64,000 nt of DNA from Candidatus Micrarchaeota archaeon. GTDB lineage: Archaea; Micrarchaeota; Micrarchaeia; Norongarragalinales; Norongarragalinaceae. The stretch lies in the NCBI GenBank assembly GCA_016207165.1, contig JACQQD010000012.1, forward strand, positions 1 to 64,000, given 5' to 3'. Below the pieces are notes generated by a model. That model was not told the DNA's origin and searched no databases. It worked only from the letters and a program-made list of their open reading frames with translations. The translations under genes were made by a program, and so were the position numbers. Below are positions 2,852-64,000 of the stretch, one piece after another; the stretch's first letter is position 1; each line of letters begins with the position of its first letter.

Positions 2852-3601
2852 GTGGAGAAGCTGGACGCCGACCAATGGCAGACCCTGAAAGGCTTGGGGC
2901 TGACGGACAACGAAGTGCGCACGTATTTGGCGCTTTTGGAGCAAGGCGCCACGACCGTCGGCCCCCTGGTGCCGAAAACGCAGATGCACCGCTCGCGCGT
3001 GTACGCTTCCCTGGAGCGGTTGGTGGAAAAGGGGTTCGTCTCCGTCATCCGGAAAAGCCAGAAACACATCTACCAGGCGTTGGCGCCGGAATCGTTGCTG
3101 GAAATGTTGGAGGAGAAAAAGCGGGGCGTCACGGAACTCTTGCCTGCGCTTTCCGCCATGGCGACGCCCAGCGTCCTGTCGGCGGCCATGTACGAGGGCA
3201 TTCCGGCGATGAAGGCGGTGCGCATGAAGCTCTTGTCGGAAATGAAGGCCGGGGAAACCCTGCTGGTGCAGGGTGCGCCAAGCCTTGGCAACAAGCGCAT
3301 CGAGGCGTGGTACCTGGAGTTTCACCGCCAACGCGAGAGAAAGGGCGTGAACGTCAAGATTTTGTACAACGCGGACGCGCGGCAATACGGCGAAAAACGG
3401 TTGAAGTTGTTCAAGCGCCTGCAGTGCCGGTACATGGAGGAAAAAACGGTGACCCCCGCTTGGGTGGACGTCTTCTCGGACTCCATCATGATCGTTGTGT
3501 TCAAGCCGCCGGTAATTAGCTTCGTGGTCAAAGACCGGGGATTGCGGGATAGTTTTGCCGCCTTTTTTGACGTGCTTTGGAAGAATGCGGCGCGGCGGTA
3601 G
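2852..3601 (+). CDS. TrmB-family transcriptional regulator
   Basis: LKGLGLTDNEVRTYLALL..HRSRVYASLERLVEKG wHTH plus C-terminal effector domain (YEG). Confidence 0.9.
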   Translation: MEKLDADQWQTLKGLGLTDNEVRTYLALLEQGATTVGPLVPKTQMHRSRVYASLERLVEKGFVSVIRKSQKHIYQALAPESLLEMLEEKKRGVTELLPALSAMATPSVLSAAMYEGIPAMKAVRMKLLSEMKAGETLLVQGAPSLGNKRIEAWYLEFHRQRERKGVNVKILYNADARQYGEKRLKLFKRLQCRYMEEKTVTPAWVDVFSDSIMIVVFKPPVISFVVKDRGLRDSFAAFFDVLWKNAARR

Positions 3602-19254: not shown

Positions 19255-19326
19255 GGGCTCGTAGTCGAGTGGTAAGACGCCGCCTTCGCAAGGCGGAGAC
19301 CGCGGGTTCAATTCCCGCCGAGTCCA
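19255..19326 (+). tRNA. tRNA-Ala(CGC)
   Basis: Cloverleaf with CCGCC-TTCGCAA-GGCGG anticodon arm and G3:U70 pair. Confidence 0.95.
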
Positions 19327-19327
19327 T

Positions 19328-19495
19328 AGTAGTTTGAGTAACCGCAAGTCTTTCAGTTCTGCGGCTGCTCGGACACGGGCCTTACGTGCGGTCGCTTCCC
19401 TGCAAAAAAGAGGGAGGGGATCGGGGTAACGTAGGACTAAGGGGAACCGTAGGTGCCCCTTAGTCCCGGCGTGGTTCAATTCCCGCCGAGTCCAT
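19328..19495 (+). mobile_element. 145-nt non-coding insert with GTAG+hairpin, followed by 23-bp duplication of tRNA-Ala 3' end
   Basis: GGTTCAATTCCCGCCGAGTCCAT at 19305-19327 and 19473-19495; hairpin GGACTAAGGGG..CCCCTTAGTCC 19434-19466. Confidence 0.7.
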
Positions 19496-58618: not shown

Positions 58619-58754
58619 TGGAGGGGGAGGGATTTGAACCCTCGAACCCACAAAGGGAACAGATTCCCCAACCCGGCCGAAAAGCCGGAACGTTCATGGG
58701 AGTTGGCCTGGGATCTTGAGTCTGTCGCGTTTGACCAGGCTTTGCTACCCCTCC
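58619..58754 (-). tRNA. tRNA-Leu(CAA) with 50-nt intron at 37/38 (58665-58714)
   Basis: ACAGA-CTCAAG|intron|A-TCTGT; BHB central helix CTCA/TGGG; acceptor GGAGGGG/CCCCTCC. Confidence 0.92.
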
Positions 58755-61177: not shown

Positions 61178-61224
61178 TACCTACATATGGTATCTGATCA
61201 TACAAAAAACACAAGATATTGTGT
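61178..61224 (+). promoter_or_regulatory. tandem NrdR-like boxes
   Basis: TACCTACATATGGTAT (61178) and ACACAAGATATTGTGT (61209), 31 bp apart, upstream of nrdD. Confidence 0.7.
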
Positions 61225-61240
61225 TTTCGGGGGAGTGGGC

Positions 61241-63295
61241 ATGGTCATCCGGAAAATCAGGAAACGCGACGGCCGGTTGGAGGACTTTGACCACAAGCGC
61301 ATTTCCACCGCGATTTTCAAGGCCGCCAAATCCGTGGGGGGCCAGGACTGGTCGCTGGCGGAAAAACTGACGGACGACGTGGTCCGGCAACTGGAAGCCC
61401 AATTCGCGGGCCAGACGCCGACCGTAGAGCAAGTCCAGGACCTCGTGGAAAAGACGCTCATTGAATCCGGGCACGCCAAGACCGCGAAAACCTACATTTT
61501 GTACCGCAAACAGCGCGCCGACATCCGCGACGTGCGGAAACTCATGGACTCCGACGAACTGGTGGACGGGTACCTGGGGGAAATGGATTGGCGCGTCAAG
61601 GAAAACGCGAACATGAGCTACAGCCTTCAGGGTCTTAACTTCCACATCTCTTCGGCCGTGATTTCCAGGTACTGGCTGAACAAGTTGTACCCGGAAAAAA
61701 TCGCTTCCGCCCATTCGTCCGGGGACTTCCACATCCACGACCTCGGCATTCTGGGGCCGTACTGCGTGGGCTGGGACCTCAAGGACCTTTTGTTGAACGG
61801 GTTTGGCCACGTGTCCGGAAAAATTTCAAGCAAGCCCGCCAGGCACTTCCGCACGGCTCTGGGCCAAGTCGTCAATTTCTTCTATACCTTGCAAGGCGAG
61901 GCCGCCGGAGCGCAGGCGTTTTCCAGCTTCGACTCGTATTTGGCGCCGTTCATCCGCTACGACGGACTGGACGAAAAGCAAGTCAAACAAGCCCTCCAGG
62001 AATTTGTTTTCAACATCAACGTGCCCACCCGCGTGGGCTTCCAGACGCCGTTTACCAACATCACCATGGACTTAAACGTGCCGAACATGATGAAAGGCGA
62101 GCCCGTCATTGCGGGCGGAACATTCCAGAACGAGGTATACGGCGACTTTCAGCCGGAACTGGACGTCTTGAATCAGGCGTTTGCCGAAGTCATGATGGAA
62201 GGCGACGCGCAAGAAAGGGTGTTCACGTTTCCCATTCCCACGTACAACATCACGAAAAACTTCAATTGGGACGCGCCGGTCGTGAAAAACGTGTTCGAAA
62301 TGACGGCCAAGTACGGCGTGCCATACTTTTCCAACTTTGTCAACTCCGACATGTCGCCGGAAGACGCCAGGAGTATGTGTTGTCGATTGAGGCTCGACAA
62401 CCGGGAACTGCGCAAACGCGGCGGAGGACTCTTTGGAGCCAATCCGCTTACCGGAAGCGTGGGGGTCGTCACCATCAACTTACCCCGCATTGGCTTTACG
62501 TGCAAGACCGAAGACGCGTACTTTGAAAAACTCGACGCCTTAATGGACTTGGCCAAAGAAAGCCTGGAAACCAAGCGCCACGTATTGGAAGGCTTCACGG
62601 AAAAAGGGCTGTACCCGTATTCACGGTACTACCTGCGCGACATCAAAAGCCAGTTCGGCCAATACTGGAAAAACCACTTCGCCACCATCGGCCTCATTGG
62701 AATGAACGAGTCCGTCCAGAACTTTTTGGGCGTGTCCATCGCCGACATCCAAGGCAAAGCCTTTGCACTCAAAATCCTCACCCACATGCGCAACCGCTTG
62801 GGCCAGTACCAGGAGGAAACCGGAAACATCTATAACCTGGAGGCCACTCCCGGCGAAGGCACGTCGCACCGCTTGGCGCGGCTGGACGCCGCCATGCACC
62901 CCGGCATCCGCGTGGCCAACCAAAACGCCGTCAACGTCCGCCAGGCCGCGGCATACTACACGAATTCCTCGCACCTACCCGTAGGCCACACGACGGACGT
63001 TTTCGAAGCCTTGGAACACCAAGACGAACTCCAAACCCAGTACACCGGCGGAACGGTGCTCCACGGATTTTTGGGAGAACAAGTCTCGGACTGGCGGACT
63101 GCCCGGGACTTGGTGCGCAAAATCGCGGAAAACTTCCACCTCCCGTACTTCACGTTGACACCCACGTTTTCCGTCTGCCCCAACCACGGGTACCTTGCGG
63201 GCGAGCATTTCTATTGCCCCACGTGCGACGAAGAAATCGGGTACGTTCAAGAAAAGGAGGAGAAAACCCATGGAAGCGCAATGCACCCCACATGA
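61241..63295 (+). CDS. nrdD: anaerobic (class III) ribonucleotide reductase large subunit with ATP cone, lacking the glycyl-radical motif
   Basis: IRKRDG ATP cone, HIHDL, RSMCCRL, EATPGE, YTNSS, TGGTVLH, SVCPNHG..CPTC. Confidence 0.93.
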   Translation: MVIRKIRKRDGRLEDFDHKRISTAIFKAAKSVGGQDWSLAEKLTDDVVRQLEAQFAGQTPTVEQVQDLVEKTLIESGHAKTAKTYILYRKQRADIRDVRKLMDSDELVDGYLGEMDWRVKENANMSYSLQGLNFHISSAVISRYWLNKLYPEKIASAHSSGDFHIHDLGILGPYCVGWDLKDLLLNGFGHVSGKISSKPARHFRTALGQVVNFFYTLQGEAAGAQAFSSFDSYLAPFIRYDGLDEKQVKQALQEFVFNINVPTRVGFQTPFTNITMDLNVPNMMKGEPVIAGGTFQNEVYGDFQPELDVLNQAFAEVMMEGDAQERVFTFPIPTYNITKNFNWDAPVVKNVFEMTAKYGVPYFSNFVNSDMSPEDARSMCCRLRLDNRELRKRGGGLFGANPLTGSVGVVTINLPRIGFTCKTEDAYFEKLDALMDLAKESLETKRHVLEGFTEKGLYPYSRYYLRDIKSQFGQYWKNHFATIGLIGMNESVQNFLGVSIADIQGKAFALKILTHMRNRLGQYQEETGNIYNLEATPGEGTSHRLARLDAAMHPGIRVANQNAVNVRQAAAYYTNSSHLPVGHTTDVFEALEHQDELQTQYTGGTVLHGFLGEQVSDWRTARDLVRKIAENFHLPYFTLTPTFSVCPNHGYLAGEHFYCPTCDEEIGYVQEKEEKTHGSAMHPT

Positions 63296-63437
63296 AAACC
63301 TGGAAAACAAGCGAACGAAATGCGAAGTCTACAGGCCGCGGAACCGCGGGGGACACCTCCGCTTCGCTCCGGTTTCCCCCTCAGTTCTACGTTCCTCCGG
63401 ATCCCCCTTCCCACGAAAAGAGGACCAAGAGGTGTAA
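63270..63437 (+). pseudogene. interrupted 5' copy of the NrdD glycyl-radical peptide gene
   Basis: AGGAGG RBS + MEAQCTPHENLENKRTKCEVY, then runs into the insert. Confidence 0.55.
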
Positions 63438-63445
63438 GCATGCAG
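63335..63445 (-). mobile_element. 111-nt insert with GTAG+hairpin between 41-bp direct repeats
   Basis: GAAAACCTGGAAAACAAGCGAACGAAATGCGAAGTCTACAG at 63294-63334 and 63446-63486; reverse complement aligns with 19412-19470. Confidence 0.7.
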
Positions 63446-63580
63446 GAAAACCTGGAAAACAAGCGAACGAAATGCGAAGTCTACAGCCGAGTCGTCGGAT
63501 ACCTTCGACCCGTAGACCAATGGAATGAAGGCAAGCAAGCCGAGTTCTCGGAACGCAAAACATACCGGGTCCAACCATGA
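63440..63580 (+). CDS. NrdD C-terminal glycyl-radical peptide (46 aa)
   Basis: GAGGTG RBS; MQENLENKRTKCEVYSRVVGYLRPVDQWNEGKQAEF. Confidence 0.85.
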   Translation: MQENLENKRTKCEVYSRVVGYLRPVDQWNEGKQAEFSERKTYRVQP

Positions 63581-64000
63581 GAATCGGCGGCTTCCAAAAG
63601 ACGACGCTGGTGGACTATCCCGGAAAAATCGCCTCGATCGTCTTTTTGTCGGGGTGCAACATGCGGTGCGGGTACTGCTACAATGCGCCGTTGGCCACAG
63701 GAAAACTGCCGGATTTAGGCGAGGAAAACGTTTTCCGCGAGATCTCTCAGAGAAAAAAGTACGTGGACGCCGTGGTCATCACCGGAGGCGAGCCCACGAT
63801 TTGGCCCGACCTGCCCCAACGCCTCCAACAACTCAAAAAAGAAGGGTTCCTGGTGAAGTTGGACACCAACGGCTTGAACCCCGAGAAACTCCGGCAAATC
63901 CTTGAATCCGGCGACGTGGACTTTGTCGCCATGGACGTCAAGGCGCCTTGGGCCAAGTACCAAGGCGTGTGCGGGGCCAGGCTTGACGAACGCCGCATCC
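63577..64000 (+). CDS. nrdG: anaerobic RNR activating enzyme (runs off window end)
   Basis: MRIGGFQKTTLVDYPGK..GCNMRCGYC..TGGEP..KLDTNG. Confidence 0.92.
   Translation, partial: MRIGGFQKTTLVDYPGKIASIVFLSGCNMRCGYCYNAPLATGKLPDLGEENVFREISQRKKYVDAVVITGGEPTIWPDLPQRLQQLKKEGFLVKLDTNGLNPEKLRQILESGDVDFVAMDVKAPWAKYQGVCGARLDERRI

Follow-up and report, generated by a model that had tools for sequence, protein, structure and literature searches.

The stretch analysed here (hereafter the window) comprises positions 1 to 64,000 of contig JACQQD010000012.1 (C12:1-64000) in the Candidatus Micrarchaeota archaeon assembly GCA_016207165.1, a genome of 1.27 Mb in 12 contigs that is 90% complete and is called G000 below. 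Near the right end of the window lie nrdD and nrdG, coding for a class III ribonucleotide reductase (RNR) and its activase, and the last part of nrdD is interrupted by a small insert standing between two copies of the same target sequence. The insert contains a copy of a short hairpin-forming element, designated S in this study, that recurs in this genome and in its relatives. The locus is organised as follows (SD, Shine-Dalgarno sequence; uORF, upstream open reading frame).

61187..63295, + strand: nrdD large chain, 702 aa, with ATP-cone and NRDD core, ending before the glycyl-radical segment
63270..63437, + strand: truncated old reading frame (uORF), with SD AAGGAGG at 63254-63260, ATG at 63270 and stop TAA at 63435-63437
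63294..63334, no strand assigned: repeat copy 1 (orphan copy), contiguous with native upstream DNA
63338..63410, - strand: S element, 73 nt, matched by covariance model R1 at 67.2 bits (E 4e-15)
63411..63439, + strand: spacer ('var') between the 5' end of S and the functional gene copy, with SD GAGGTG at 63429-63434 and the uORF stop
63440..63580, + strand: functional glycyl-radical peptide gene, 46 aa with RVVGY motif, its stop overlapping the nrdG start
63446..63486, no strand assigned: repeat copy 2, belonging to the functional gene
63577..64000, + strand: nrdG activase (radical SAM), recognised by a Pfam match and truncated by the window end

A direct repeat search returned 44 nt with one mismatch (63291-63334 and 63443-63486), the exact part of which is formed by the two 41-nt copies listed above. 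These enclose 111 nt (63335-63445), just as a preliminary description of this DNA, made from its letters, had stated; by hand arithmetic, an exact 41-nt repeat within 1.5 kb has a chance expectation of ~1e-19. The insertion point is located inside the small peptide gene, after codon 21 and its ...CEVY codons, with S antisense to the gene. This S copy is composed of a purine-rich 5' box (GAAGGGGGATCCGGAGGAACGTAG), a hairpin AACTGAGGGGG...CCCCCGCGGTT and a tail CCG that ends 3 nt from repeat copy 1, and its RNA fold reached -41.5 kcal/mol (z -1.89). Beyond S, the insert consists of a spacer of ~33-35 nt that is unique in G000. Rfam yielded no family match to the insert at the gathering threshold and two chance-level matches at E <= 10. 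The uORF (MEAQCTPHENLENKRTKCEVY...) opens with MEAQCTPH, continues with repeat copy 1 and then runs through the antisense strand of S, without any Pfam match. ATG 63440 opens MQENLENKRTKCEVYSRVVGYLRPVDQWNEGKQAEFSERKTYRVQP, which is followed by the stop codon and covers positions 531-562 of the 562 of the Pfam NRDD profile (E 4e-11). An upstream start reading into the insert, and an insert giving GAGGTG plus an in-frame ATG, had both been proposed in the preliminary description and are borne out by these open reading frames (ORFs).

The assembly was checked against four metagenome runs of one study (X1-X4), possibly including the source sample. Contigs joined repeat 1 to the insert in all four runs and the insert to repeat 2 in X1, X2 and X3, and in run X1 the 41-mer reached a depth of 49.8 against ~24 for its flanks, with junction contigs at flank depth. 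Spanning contigs thus support the insert. The empty allele, which the preliminary description had proposed to look for, did not appear: no contig joint skipping the insert was present in the four runs, assembled contigs being prone to drop rare variants. The insert allele is real and, as far as contigs can show, fixed. An assembly artefact has a negligible probability, for although the repeat exceeds the assembler word size and contigs break at it, both junctions are bridged in several runs at flank depth, and the same layout was recorded at ten more G000 loci and in a second lineage (L176, see below).

The host gene displayed the hallmarks of class III RNR, namely an NRDD core, a C-terminal RVxGY motif and an adjoining radical-SAM activase, the motif being carried by a separate 46-aa ORF. 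The large chain covers positions 1-532 of the 562 of the NRDD profile (E 4e-182) and its ATP-cone was also matched. The 46-aa peptide was aligned with those of relatives, which include G001 and G002, two genomes of the same genus as G000, and related loci designated by L-numbers, L176 being one of 80 metagenome nrdD loci. In all 11 relatives' loci that were read, the radical motif occupied its own short frame 3' of the large chain, and the split of nrdD is ancestral and not caused by the insert. Among the best 80 metagenome loci, 36 were split, 30 fused and 7 unclear, and 7 failed the motif screen. In split loci (the window, L007-L017 and 36 of the 80 loci L110-L189) the peptide measures ~40-50 aa and has its own SD and ATG. 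A class III RNR with its radical glycine on a separate 46-residue peptide makes the host gene notable in itself; this arrangement was not found in a literature search that did not cover RNR reviews, and it may be in print.

In G001 (L007), G002 (L008) and L176 (2690-2845), a spacer of 250-350 nt separates the nrdD large chain from the radical peptide. It holds two tiny Lys-/Cys-rich ORFs (e.g. MTEKPAKKKTKAKTEGCCGKGCCG and MKPTKKTAKKGKSRCKPRC) that are conserved among all three.

Copies of S were gathered from relatives and from one genome per species, and 57 of them were aligned (alignment A2); an initial alignment by MAFFT, limited to the six G000 copies, was discarded for its poor quality. 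S measures ~55-75 nt. A 5' box rich in purines is followed by the conserved stem AACUGAGGGGG/CCCCCGCGGUU, whose loop varies, and by a 3' tail that is short and pairs back. The consensus of the 57 sequences is AGGGGGATCAGGAGGA-N-C-N-T-N-AAACTGAGGGGG-loop-CCCCCGCGGTTC-N-G. Over these sequences, 92.1% of the cells in the stem of 14 pairs were paired, a value reached by none of 500 shuffles, and a shift of partners by one column lowered pairing to 55-65%. Pair 22-72 is CG in 22 sequences, GC in 11, UA in 11 and GU in 4, with both sides changed in 27, while pair 37-59 is AU in 28, GC in 14 and CG in 5. U29-G67 was retained in 56 of the 57 sequences and pair 32-64 displayed 13 GU. Since G-U pairs turn into A-C on the opposite strand, S folds on one strand only, and at nrdD that strand is antisense to the gene. 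The folded form may be RNA or single-stranded DNA, both of which are compatible with the sequence. GTAG, after which the element had initially been named, is no family feature, the family consensus at that place being AAC-N-T-N-A/G-AAC.

Covariance model R1, built from the 57-sequence alignment, recorded 14 S copies in G000 at E <= 0.014, so that the further copies hoped for in the preliminary description do exist. Of 151 genomes sampled from the class, 47 had matches, as had 30 of 91 genera; single genomes contained as many as 27 copies, many lying at contig ends. A pattern scan of species genomes returned 51 loci, of which ~45 look genuine; they are mostly from Micrarchaeota, with a few other DPANN labels. 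The six remaining loci lacked the 5' box and look like chance matches, and the sole match on a viral contig, also devoid of the 5' box, looks like chance. A literature search found no description of an S-like element. S is probably, with some doubt left, a dispersed non-coding hairpin-forming mobile element of Micrarchaeota, of which the nrdD insert is one copy.

Eleven of the 14 G000 copies were flanked by direct target repeats, of 18, 18, 19, 23, 24, 30, 32, 41, 41, 43 and 51 nt, which are exact in seven of the eleven cases and whose downstream copy begins 0-5 nt past the S tail. The corresponding targets are five tRNA genes, four 3' ends and two 5' starts of protein genes, nrdD being one of the two starts. 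Repeats at the five tRNA targets are 18-24 nt long, starting at the T-loop and ending 1-2 nt beyond the 3' end. The same repeat layout was observed for 25 of 59 copies in other genomes at the score threshold used. S has a precise 3' junction; on its 5' side, 0-105 additional nt were recorded. Some of these, at least, belong to the element, because copies at different targets have them in common (27 nt in L058 and L070, 11 nt in L066 and L068); several G000 copies likewise have a common TTGATTCGCG box on their 5' side, as judged by eye. No common motif was found at the target junctions of the G000 copies and of those in other genomes. Recurrence at unrelated conserved targets (tRNA 3' ends, protein-gene ends and starts), regeneration of the interrupted gene and conservation of one end of the element, which had been claimed from two copies, thus extend to the larger set.

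The other of these two copies also lies in the window:

19255..19495, + strand: sister copy, with tRNA-Ala(CGC) at 19255-19326, an 84-nt spacer, S at 19411-19469 and the repeat at 19473-19495

R1 matched this S at 22.8 bits (E 0.005). The repeat, whose extent had to be corrected to 22-23 nt (19305-19326/7 and 19473-19494/5), spans the tRNA from the T-arm to the 3' end. The minus strand of the nrdD insert aligned with the tRNA-Ala insert (19327-19472) with a Smith-Waterman score of 38, against 16.0 +/- 2.3 for dinucleotide shuffles, none of 2000 of which reached it. The homology between the two inserts announced in the preliminary description is therefore confirmed over ~46 nt of conserved element, the remaining parts being unrelated. 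In G001, tRNA-Ala carries S at the same junction as in G000, with a decayed orphan repeat and an unrelated spacer. S was further recorded within a few nucleotides of tRNA gene ends in L040, L061, L063, L064, L069 and L089 and at C9:20073 of G000, and in L022 it occurs inside a 173-nt intron-containing tRNA, its tail lying against the next exon.

Two individual copies deserve mention. In an rRNA operon, the S copy of L061 (597-656) occupies the spacer from the 16S rRNA 3' end to tRNA-Ala, its tail adjoining the 5' end of the tRNA. At C3:43992-44052 of G000, the first bases of S (G-TAG) appear to give the stop of a gene whose last 41 nt are duplicated, with ..CAC CAG TAG in place of the native ..CAC CAG TGA; the frame is tentative.

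S occupied the nrdD site in one of the 80 metagenome loci, L176, which a first regular-expression screen had missed and a profile search found. It stands there on the same strand and after the same ...CEVY codons as in G000. Copy 1 (METEQPQRTRCEVY) runs into S, and copy 2 (MEEKQRTKCEVYSRVVG...) follows a 25-nt spacer with GAGGTG. The NrdD of L176 displayed 91.8% identity to that of G001, 90.4% to G002 and 79.9% to G000. Neither G001 nor G002 has S at the nrdD site, and both are also empty at the C11 site of G000. The repeats of L176 code for QRT(R/K)CEVY and are of the G001/G002 type; those of G000, 41/41 identical, are of its own type and code for ENLENKRTKCEVY. An element-borne fragment would have given both lineages the same fragment, and for this reason the duplications are apparently made in place from resident DNA and not carried on an attP-like gene fragment. 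The junctions of G000 and L176 differ by 2 nt and a 4-nt filler. By eye, the large-chain tail of G001, which keeps ...TQPENLE..., appears homologous to G000 repeat copy 1, from its start and including its upstream flank. Read in this way, the comparison shows a short stretch at the nrdD end that was apparently broken and duplicated more than once in the genus. Two sites were used twice (nrdD in G000 and L176, tRNA-Ala in G000 and G001), which a preference for the site, inheritance with later loss, or spread through homologous recombination could explain.

The peptide gene of L176 displays two changes within 3058-3100: TAA replaces the Tyr codon of the GY motif and AGG the conserved Trp codon, owing either to decay of the gene or to errors in the assembly.

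The functional peptide gene of G000 lacks its native start, and GAGGTG, 5 nt before ATG 63440, is supplied by the spacer. The old frame is open through S and ends with a TAA 2 nt before the new ATG, both in G000 (63435-63437 and 63440) and in L176 (3008-3010 and 3013). The stops of the two lineages occupy non-homologous positions, and their frames through the spacers differ by 1 nt. Because the same layout arose at non-homologous positions, the stop-2nt-ATG arrangement suggests selection for termination and re-initiation. The native arrangement, in which ATG 63270 overlaps the large-chain end, likewise suggests that the peptide is coupled to the large chain and that the uORF keeps this coupling chain. 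The old frame, with its strong native ribosome-binding site, would be read through S without a stop, and ribosomes would restart at ATG 63440. The rescue would then be two-way, through the GAGGTG and in-frame ATG of the spacer and through coupled re-initiation from the old frame. It appears that the dead first copy serves anew as an upstream frame coupled to the gene, and a very compact archaeal genome tolerates in-gene insertions where enough of the gene end is duplicated for the gene to survive.

The origin of the spacer was examined separately. Compared with the native 5' leaders of the peptide genes of G001 and G002, its score was reached by 9 and 7 of 1000 shuffles, two tests that are not independent. 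It displayed no similarity to the upstream DNA of G000 itself (418 of 2000 and 630 of 1000 shuffles reached the score). The nrdD copy may have entered the G000 lineage when a related allele, with S beside such a leader, took part in recombination; or the arrangement as a whole may be old, with its 41 bp homogenised in recent times. A piece of a homologous locus may also have come along with this one copy, which would keep part of the attP idea alive.

Searches of G000 for Y1 transposase (PF01797), TnpB, IS110 and Cas1 returned no match; DDE families were not searched. Reverse transcriptase (RVT_1) had no match in G000, G001 or G002, and was found in 67 of 401 genomes of the phylum (a tally that includes the unpublished G220) and in 4 of the 17 other genomes with BLAST-detectable S. 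The recombinases recorded in G000 were three tyrosine recombinases and one serine-recombinase-like ORF, the latter recognised by eye from its N-terminus. No integrase was found in the insert, within 3 kb on each side of the 80 nrdD loci or within ~600 nt around 45 S copies, these flanks being short.

An island of 11.7 kb in G000 (C1:152886-164696) lies beside an intron-containing tRNA (anticodon CAT), and its limits are marked by 15 nt repeated from the 3' end of that tRNA. It carries a tyrosine integrase (152995-154113), the serine-recombinase-like ORF (~162931-163713, by eye), a P-loop ATPase and a winged-helix regulator. An S cluster stands next to it, and a tie between the two was considered and rejected, since S lies outside the island as delimited by the 15-nt repeat, for which a search over 20 kb gave E 0.002. 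Most simply, S was in place against the tRNA before the island integrated, as it is at C9:20073.

Based on these observations, S would have been inserted antisense after codon 21, with 41 bp of resident target duplicated and one repeat left on each side; the repeat next to the S 3' tail would stay with the old start as a dead end, and the other would continue into the intact gene. The route most likely leaves widely and variably staggered ends at the target. Two routes can be envisaged because of the long variable duplications, the precise 3' end, the loose 5' end, the one-strand hairpin and the many targets. An enzyme provided in trans might recognise the folded S hairpin and act on widely staggered nicks; or replication or repair might copy S, drop off at the hairpin foot and re-enter the template behind the exit point. 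In a genome whose spacers are very short, a long duplication would do no harm at gene ends alone, which would explain their over-representation among targets. Variable duplications of 18-51 bp at a one-strand hairpin fit none of the prokaryotic transposition classes tested; a new enzyme, or a replication or repair route, would have to be found. The whole reading, made up of the S family, in-place duplication and rescue of the gene, with an insertion route that we infer, appears to us moderately probable.

Several results weigh against it. Three of the 14 G000 copies have no flanking repeat, no enzyme was identified and none of the G000 recombinases could be linked to S. All five tRNA targets of G000 have repeats that span the region between T-loop and 3' end, the classic footprint of tyrosine integrases, reportedly described by Williams in 2002. 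The spacer, being unique in G000, is not demonstrably part of the element, and its likeness to a leader would be easier to reconcile with import from a related allele through recombination than with a new transposition event. Compared with each other, the G000 and L176 spacers were similar by one scheme (7 of 3000 shuffles) and weakly so by another (64 of 1000). A synonymous-bias test between repeat copies, aimed at a foreign origin of the repeats, counted 6 synonymous and 28 non-synonymous changes, with crude frames taken from stop-to-stop ORFs, and points clearly to neither side. Translational coupling is read from the layout, and selection on nrdD may be conditional since G000 has a second RNR, of the class I/II large-subunit family (967 aa, C1:122420-124366).

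An S copy with a 32-nt repeat (C1:124310-124366) lies a few hundred nucleotides past the matched domain of this class I/II RNR. Both RNR loci of G000 thus have S close by.

Among other explanations, arrival of the nrdD copy by homologous recombination from a related lineage bearing S, either as homing-like conversion or as homology-facilitated illegitimate recombination, is the strongest and may tentatively be kept in mind. In such an exchange, its geometry would duplicate the recipient's own 41 bp; this concerns the arrival of the present copy and not the primary insertion mechanism of the family. It would account for a spacer that resembles a G001/G002-type leader and not the upstream DNA of G000, for S at the same codon in L176 (the S and spacer units of the two align over their whole length), and for repeats that are 41/41 identical and of the G000 type. 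Yet a donor ~20% diverged in protein would leave very short homology, the junctions of G000 and L176 differ by the 2 nt and 4-nt filler already mentioned, the spacer similarity is weak by the second scheme, and no donor allele was encountered among the 80 metagenome loci. A miniature integrative element is a rather unlikely option. In that case attP would consist of S, the spacer and one repeat, with attL and attR represented by the repeats; a tyrosine integrase would act in trans, and a gene fragment borne by the element would regenerate the gene end. As expected of integrative elements, direct target repeats flank the insert and the gene is regenerated. Apart from the tRNA footprint, this option draws on the common tRNA-Ala junction of G000 and G001, on tandem insertions at one target in L032, on the three tyrosine recombinases of G000 and on a nrdD spacer resembling a natural leader and start. 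There is also an archaeal precedent, described by Sugahara et al. 2012 (PMC3293823) and in the review PMC8371274, for mobile genetic elements whose attP carries tRNA fragments and introns. As to the gene fragment, the leader-like spacer argues for an element-borne origin and the lineage-specific repeats at the nrdD site argue against it. Further objections are that one small genome has nearly identical S copies at 11 different targets, that the inserts, of 83-190 bp, carry no gene, that the junctions have no core motif in common and that the strand-specific G-U pairing points to a single-stranded form. The lone integrase-bearing island beside S (on C1) is explained by later integration into the tRNA. 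The comparison with attP-borne gene fragments made in the preliminary description is therefore not retained, given the lineage-specific repeats, the 11 targets with related S and the lack of an integrase in or beside the insert.

Retroposition, in which an S RNA with a defined 3' end would be copied at a nicked target in the manner of long or short interspersed elements (LINE/SINE), is very unlikely. The precise 3' junction, the variable 5' side, duplications of 18-51 bp, the RNA-like G-U covariation of the hairpin, and the position of S against tRNA genes and inside one tRNA intron would all suit it, but RVT_1 had no match in the three genomes of the genus, reverse transcriptase is present in just the 4 of 17 other S-bearing genomes cited above, and the repeats have the trailer base of the gene instead of CCA. 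RNA-guided insertion is still less credible. The repeat next to the S tail would serve as guide, as in TnpB omega-RNAs or the homing spacers of CRISPR-associated transposons (CAST), and the layout of a scaffold followed by a target copy, 0-5 nt past the tail, recalls such systems. However, the copy by the tail is contiguous with resident flank and is thus the target itself, TnpB, IS110 and Cas1 gave no match, and the repeat length varies from 18 to 51 nt. No evidence was found for the programmable targeting suggested in the preliminary description: no S segment matches the targets beyond the flanking duplication, and the junctions have no common motif. Equally improbable is an intron of bulge-helix-bulge type spliced from the mRNA so as to restore the old frame. 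S does occur in a tRNA intron in L022, and a splicing endonuclease with broad specificity is reported from Micrarchaeota (PMC3239211). Against this, the plus-strand RNA of 63280-63500 folded with z +1.16 (176 of 200 shuffles folding at least as well) and without a bulge-helix-bulge motif, direct repeats would be unable to pair together, S is antisense to the gene, and what appears to be a working SD and ATG is in place.

Insertion of S with in-place duplication of resident DNA, which we continue to prefer, can be compared with known systems. Like the MITEs (miniature inverted-repeat transposable elements) and the REP, BIME, REPIN, Correia and ERIC repeats, S is short, non-coding, hairpin-forming, multi-copy, patchy among relatives, located at gene boundaries and prone to break assemblies. 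Unlike MITEs, it has no terminal inverted repeats, neither the S ends (GGGGGATC.../...GCGGTTCNG) nor those of the 111-nt insert being inverted, and no partner transposase was matched among Y1, TnpB, IS110 and Cas1, DDE families lying outside the search. Its target duplications are variable and 18-51 bp long, whereas repeats of MITE type display fixed ones of 2-10 bp or none. It differs from REP and REPIN in that GTAG is restricted to an S subfamily and no RAYT (PF01797) matched in G000, and from small prokaryotic repeats at large by the compensatory changes and the fixed G-U pair that indicate a one-strand fold. With integrase-mediated integration into tRNA genes and its archaeal variant, as described in PMC3293823 and PMC8371274, S has in common the T-loop-to-3'-end repeats, the intact gene, the orphan tRNA fragments and the re-use of sites; it departs from it by an 'element' of 60-150 nt without a gene, by its many targets including protein-gene starts and ends, and by repeats of resident origin at nrdD.

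Integron attC sites provide another parallel, being likewise single-strand hairpins, to which S (55-75 nt) can be likened by the invariant AAC...GTT at the stem base, the unpaired A/G, the variable loop and the strand specificity. The attC boxes have the consensus RYYYAAC/GTTRRRY, which the flanking boxes of S do not fit. In addition, S arrays are tandem copies of one unit (L046, L092, L019/L038) and not cassettes of unrelated genes, no IntI or attI was recognised (the recombinases are unclassified), and integron recombination gives no target duplication. Integrons are reported in Archaea (PMC9668308). Duplications by template switching resemble S in overall form, with [target][insert][same target], variable length and no transposase required. 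Template switching (microhomology-mediated break-induced replication, MMBIR) and flap ligation in FEN1 mutants produce tandem duplications with a templated junction insert, and hairpins stall forks and resist flap cleavage. Such events are sporadic and have arbitrary inserts, in contrast to one conserved S inserted repeatedly with a precise 3' end.

In Thermoproteales, one family of transposed introns occurs in the introns of different tRNAs (Fujishima et al. 2010, as cited in the bioRxiv preprint 10.64898/2026.10.13.758758). S resembles these, as far as they are described there, by its presence in a tRNA intron (L022) with its 3' end abutting the next exon, and is distinct from them by its occurrence outside tRNAs, on either strand and with target duplications. 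Each of the closest kinds (MITE/REP, integrase att footprints, transposed tRNA introns and attC) fails at least one defining feature. This study contributes the covariation test, which also assigned the fold to one strand, a census of S, the finding that repeats flank 11 of the 14 G000 copies, the same codon occupied by S in a second lineage, and the uORF layout. According to the 2026 preprint just cited, the arrival of archaeal tRNA introns 'remains open'. It is conceivable, albeit doubtful for the time being, that S represents a new class of archaeal mobile elements without their own transposase, whose single-stranded hairpin would be caught at replication intermediates that have stalled or broken, or be recognised by a host-type enzyme, and pasted in with a long variable copy of the target. 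Such a process would also seed tRNA introns, since S makes up the 3' part of one such intron and adjoins tRNA ends. If so, the S family would be a live model for the arrival of these introns, and filled versus empty S sites, together with S in a tRNA intron and against tRNA ends, offer a concrete handle on it.

Several minor observations concern other hairpins and the arrangement of S copies. A tRNA gene on the - strand of the window (58619-58754; anticodon CAA, Leu by eye), missed by ARAGORN and detected by Rfam at 40.2 bits, displays a long variable arm and a 53-nt insertion in its anticodon loop, composed of AACGT and then a hairpin that is loosely S-like. A second hairpin family, with core CTTTTCTTTCTTGGGAAGAAAGAAAAG, also duplicates tRNA ends and was recorded in L103 (G001 C1:303250-303900) and at C6:92126-92212 and C8:845-908 of G000. 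In L103, it separates three tandem copies of the tRNA-Ala 5' end. Tandem arrays of S and a 20-45-nt unit were encountered among L019, L038 (G168), L046, L092 and L032. One gene end is present three times in L032, with two different S copies standing in between, and in G168 other small hairpins are nested inside S.

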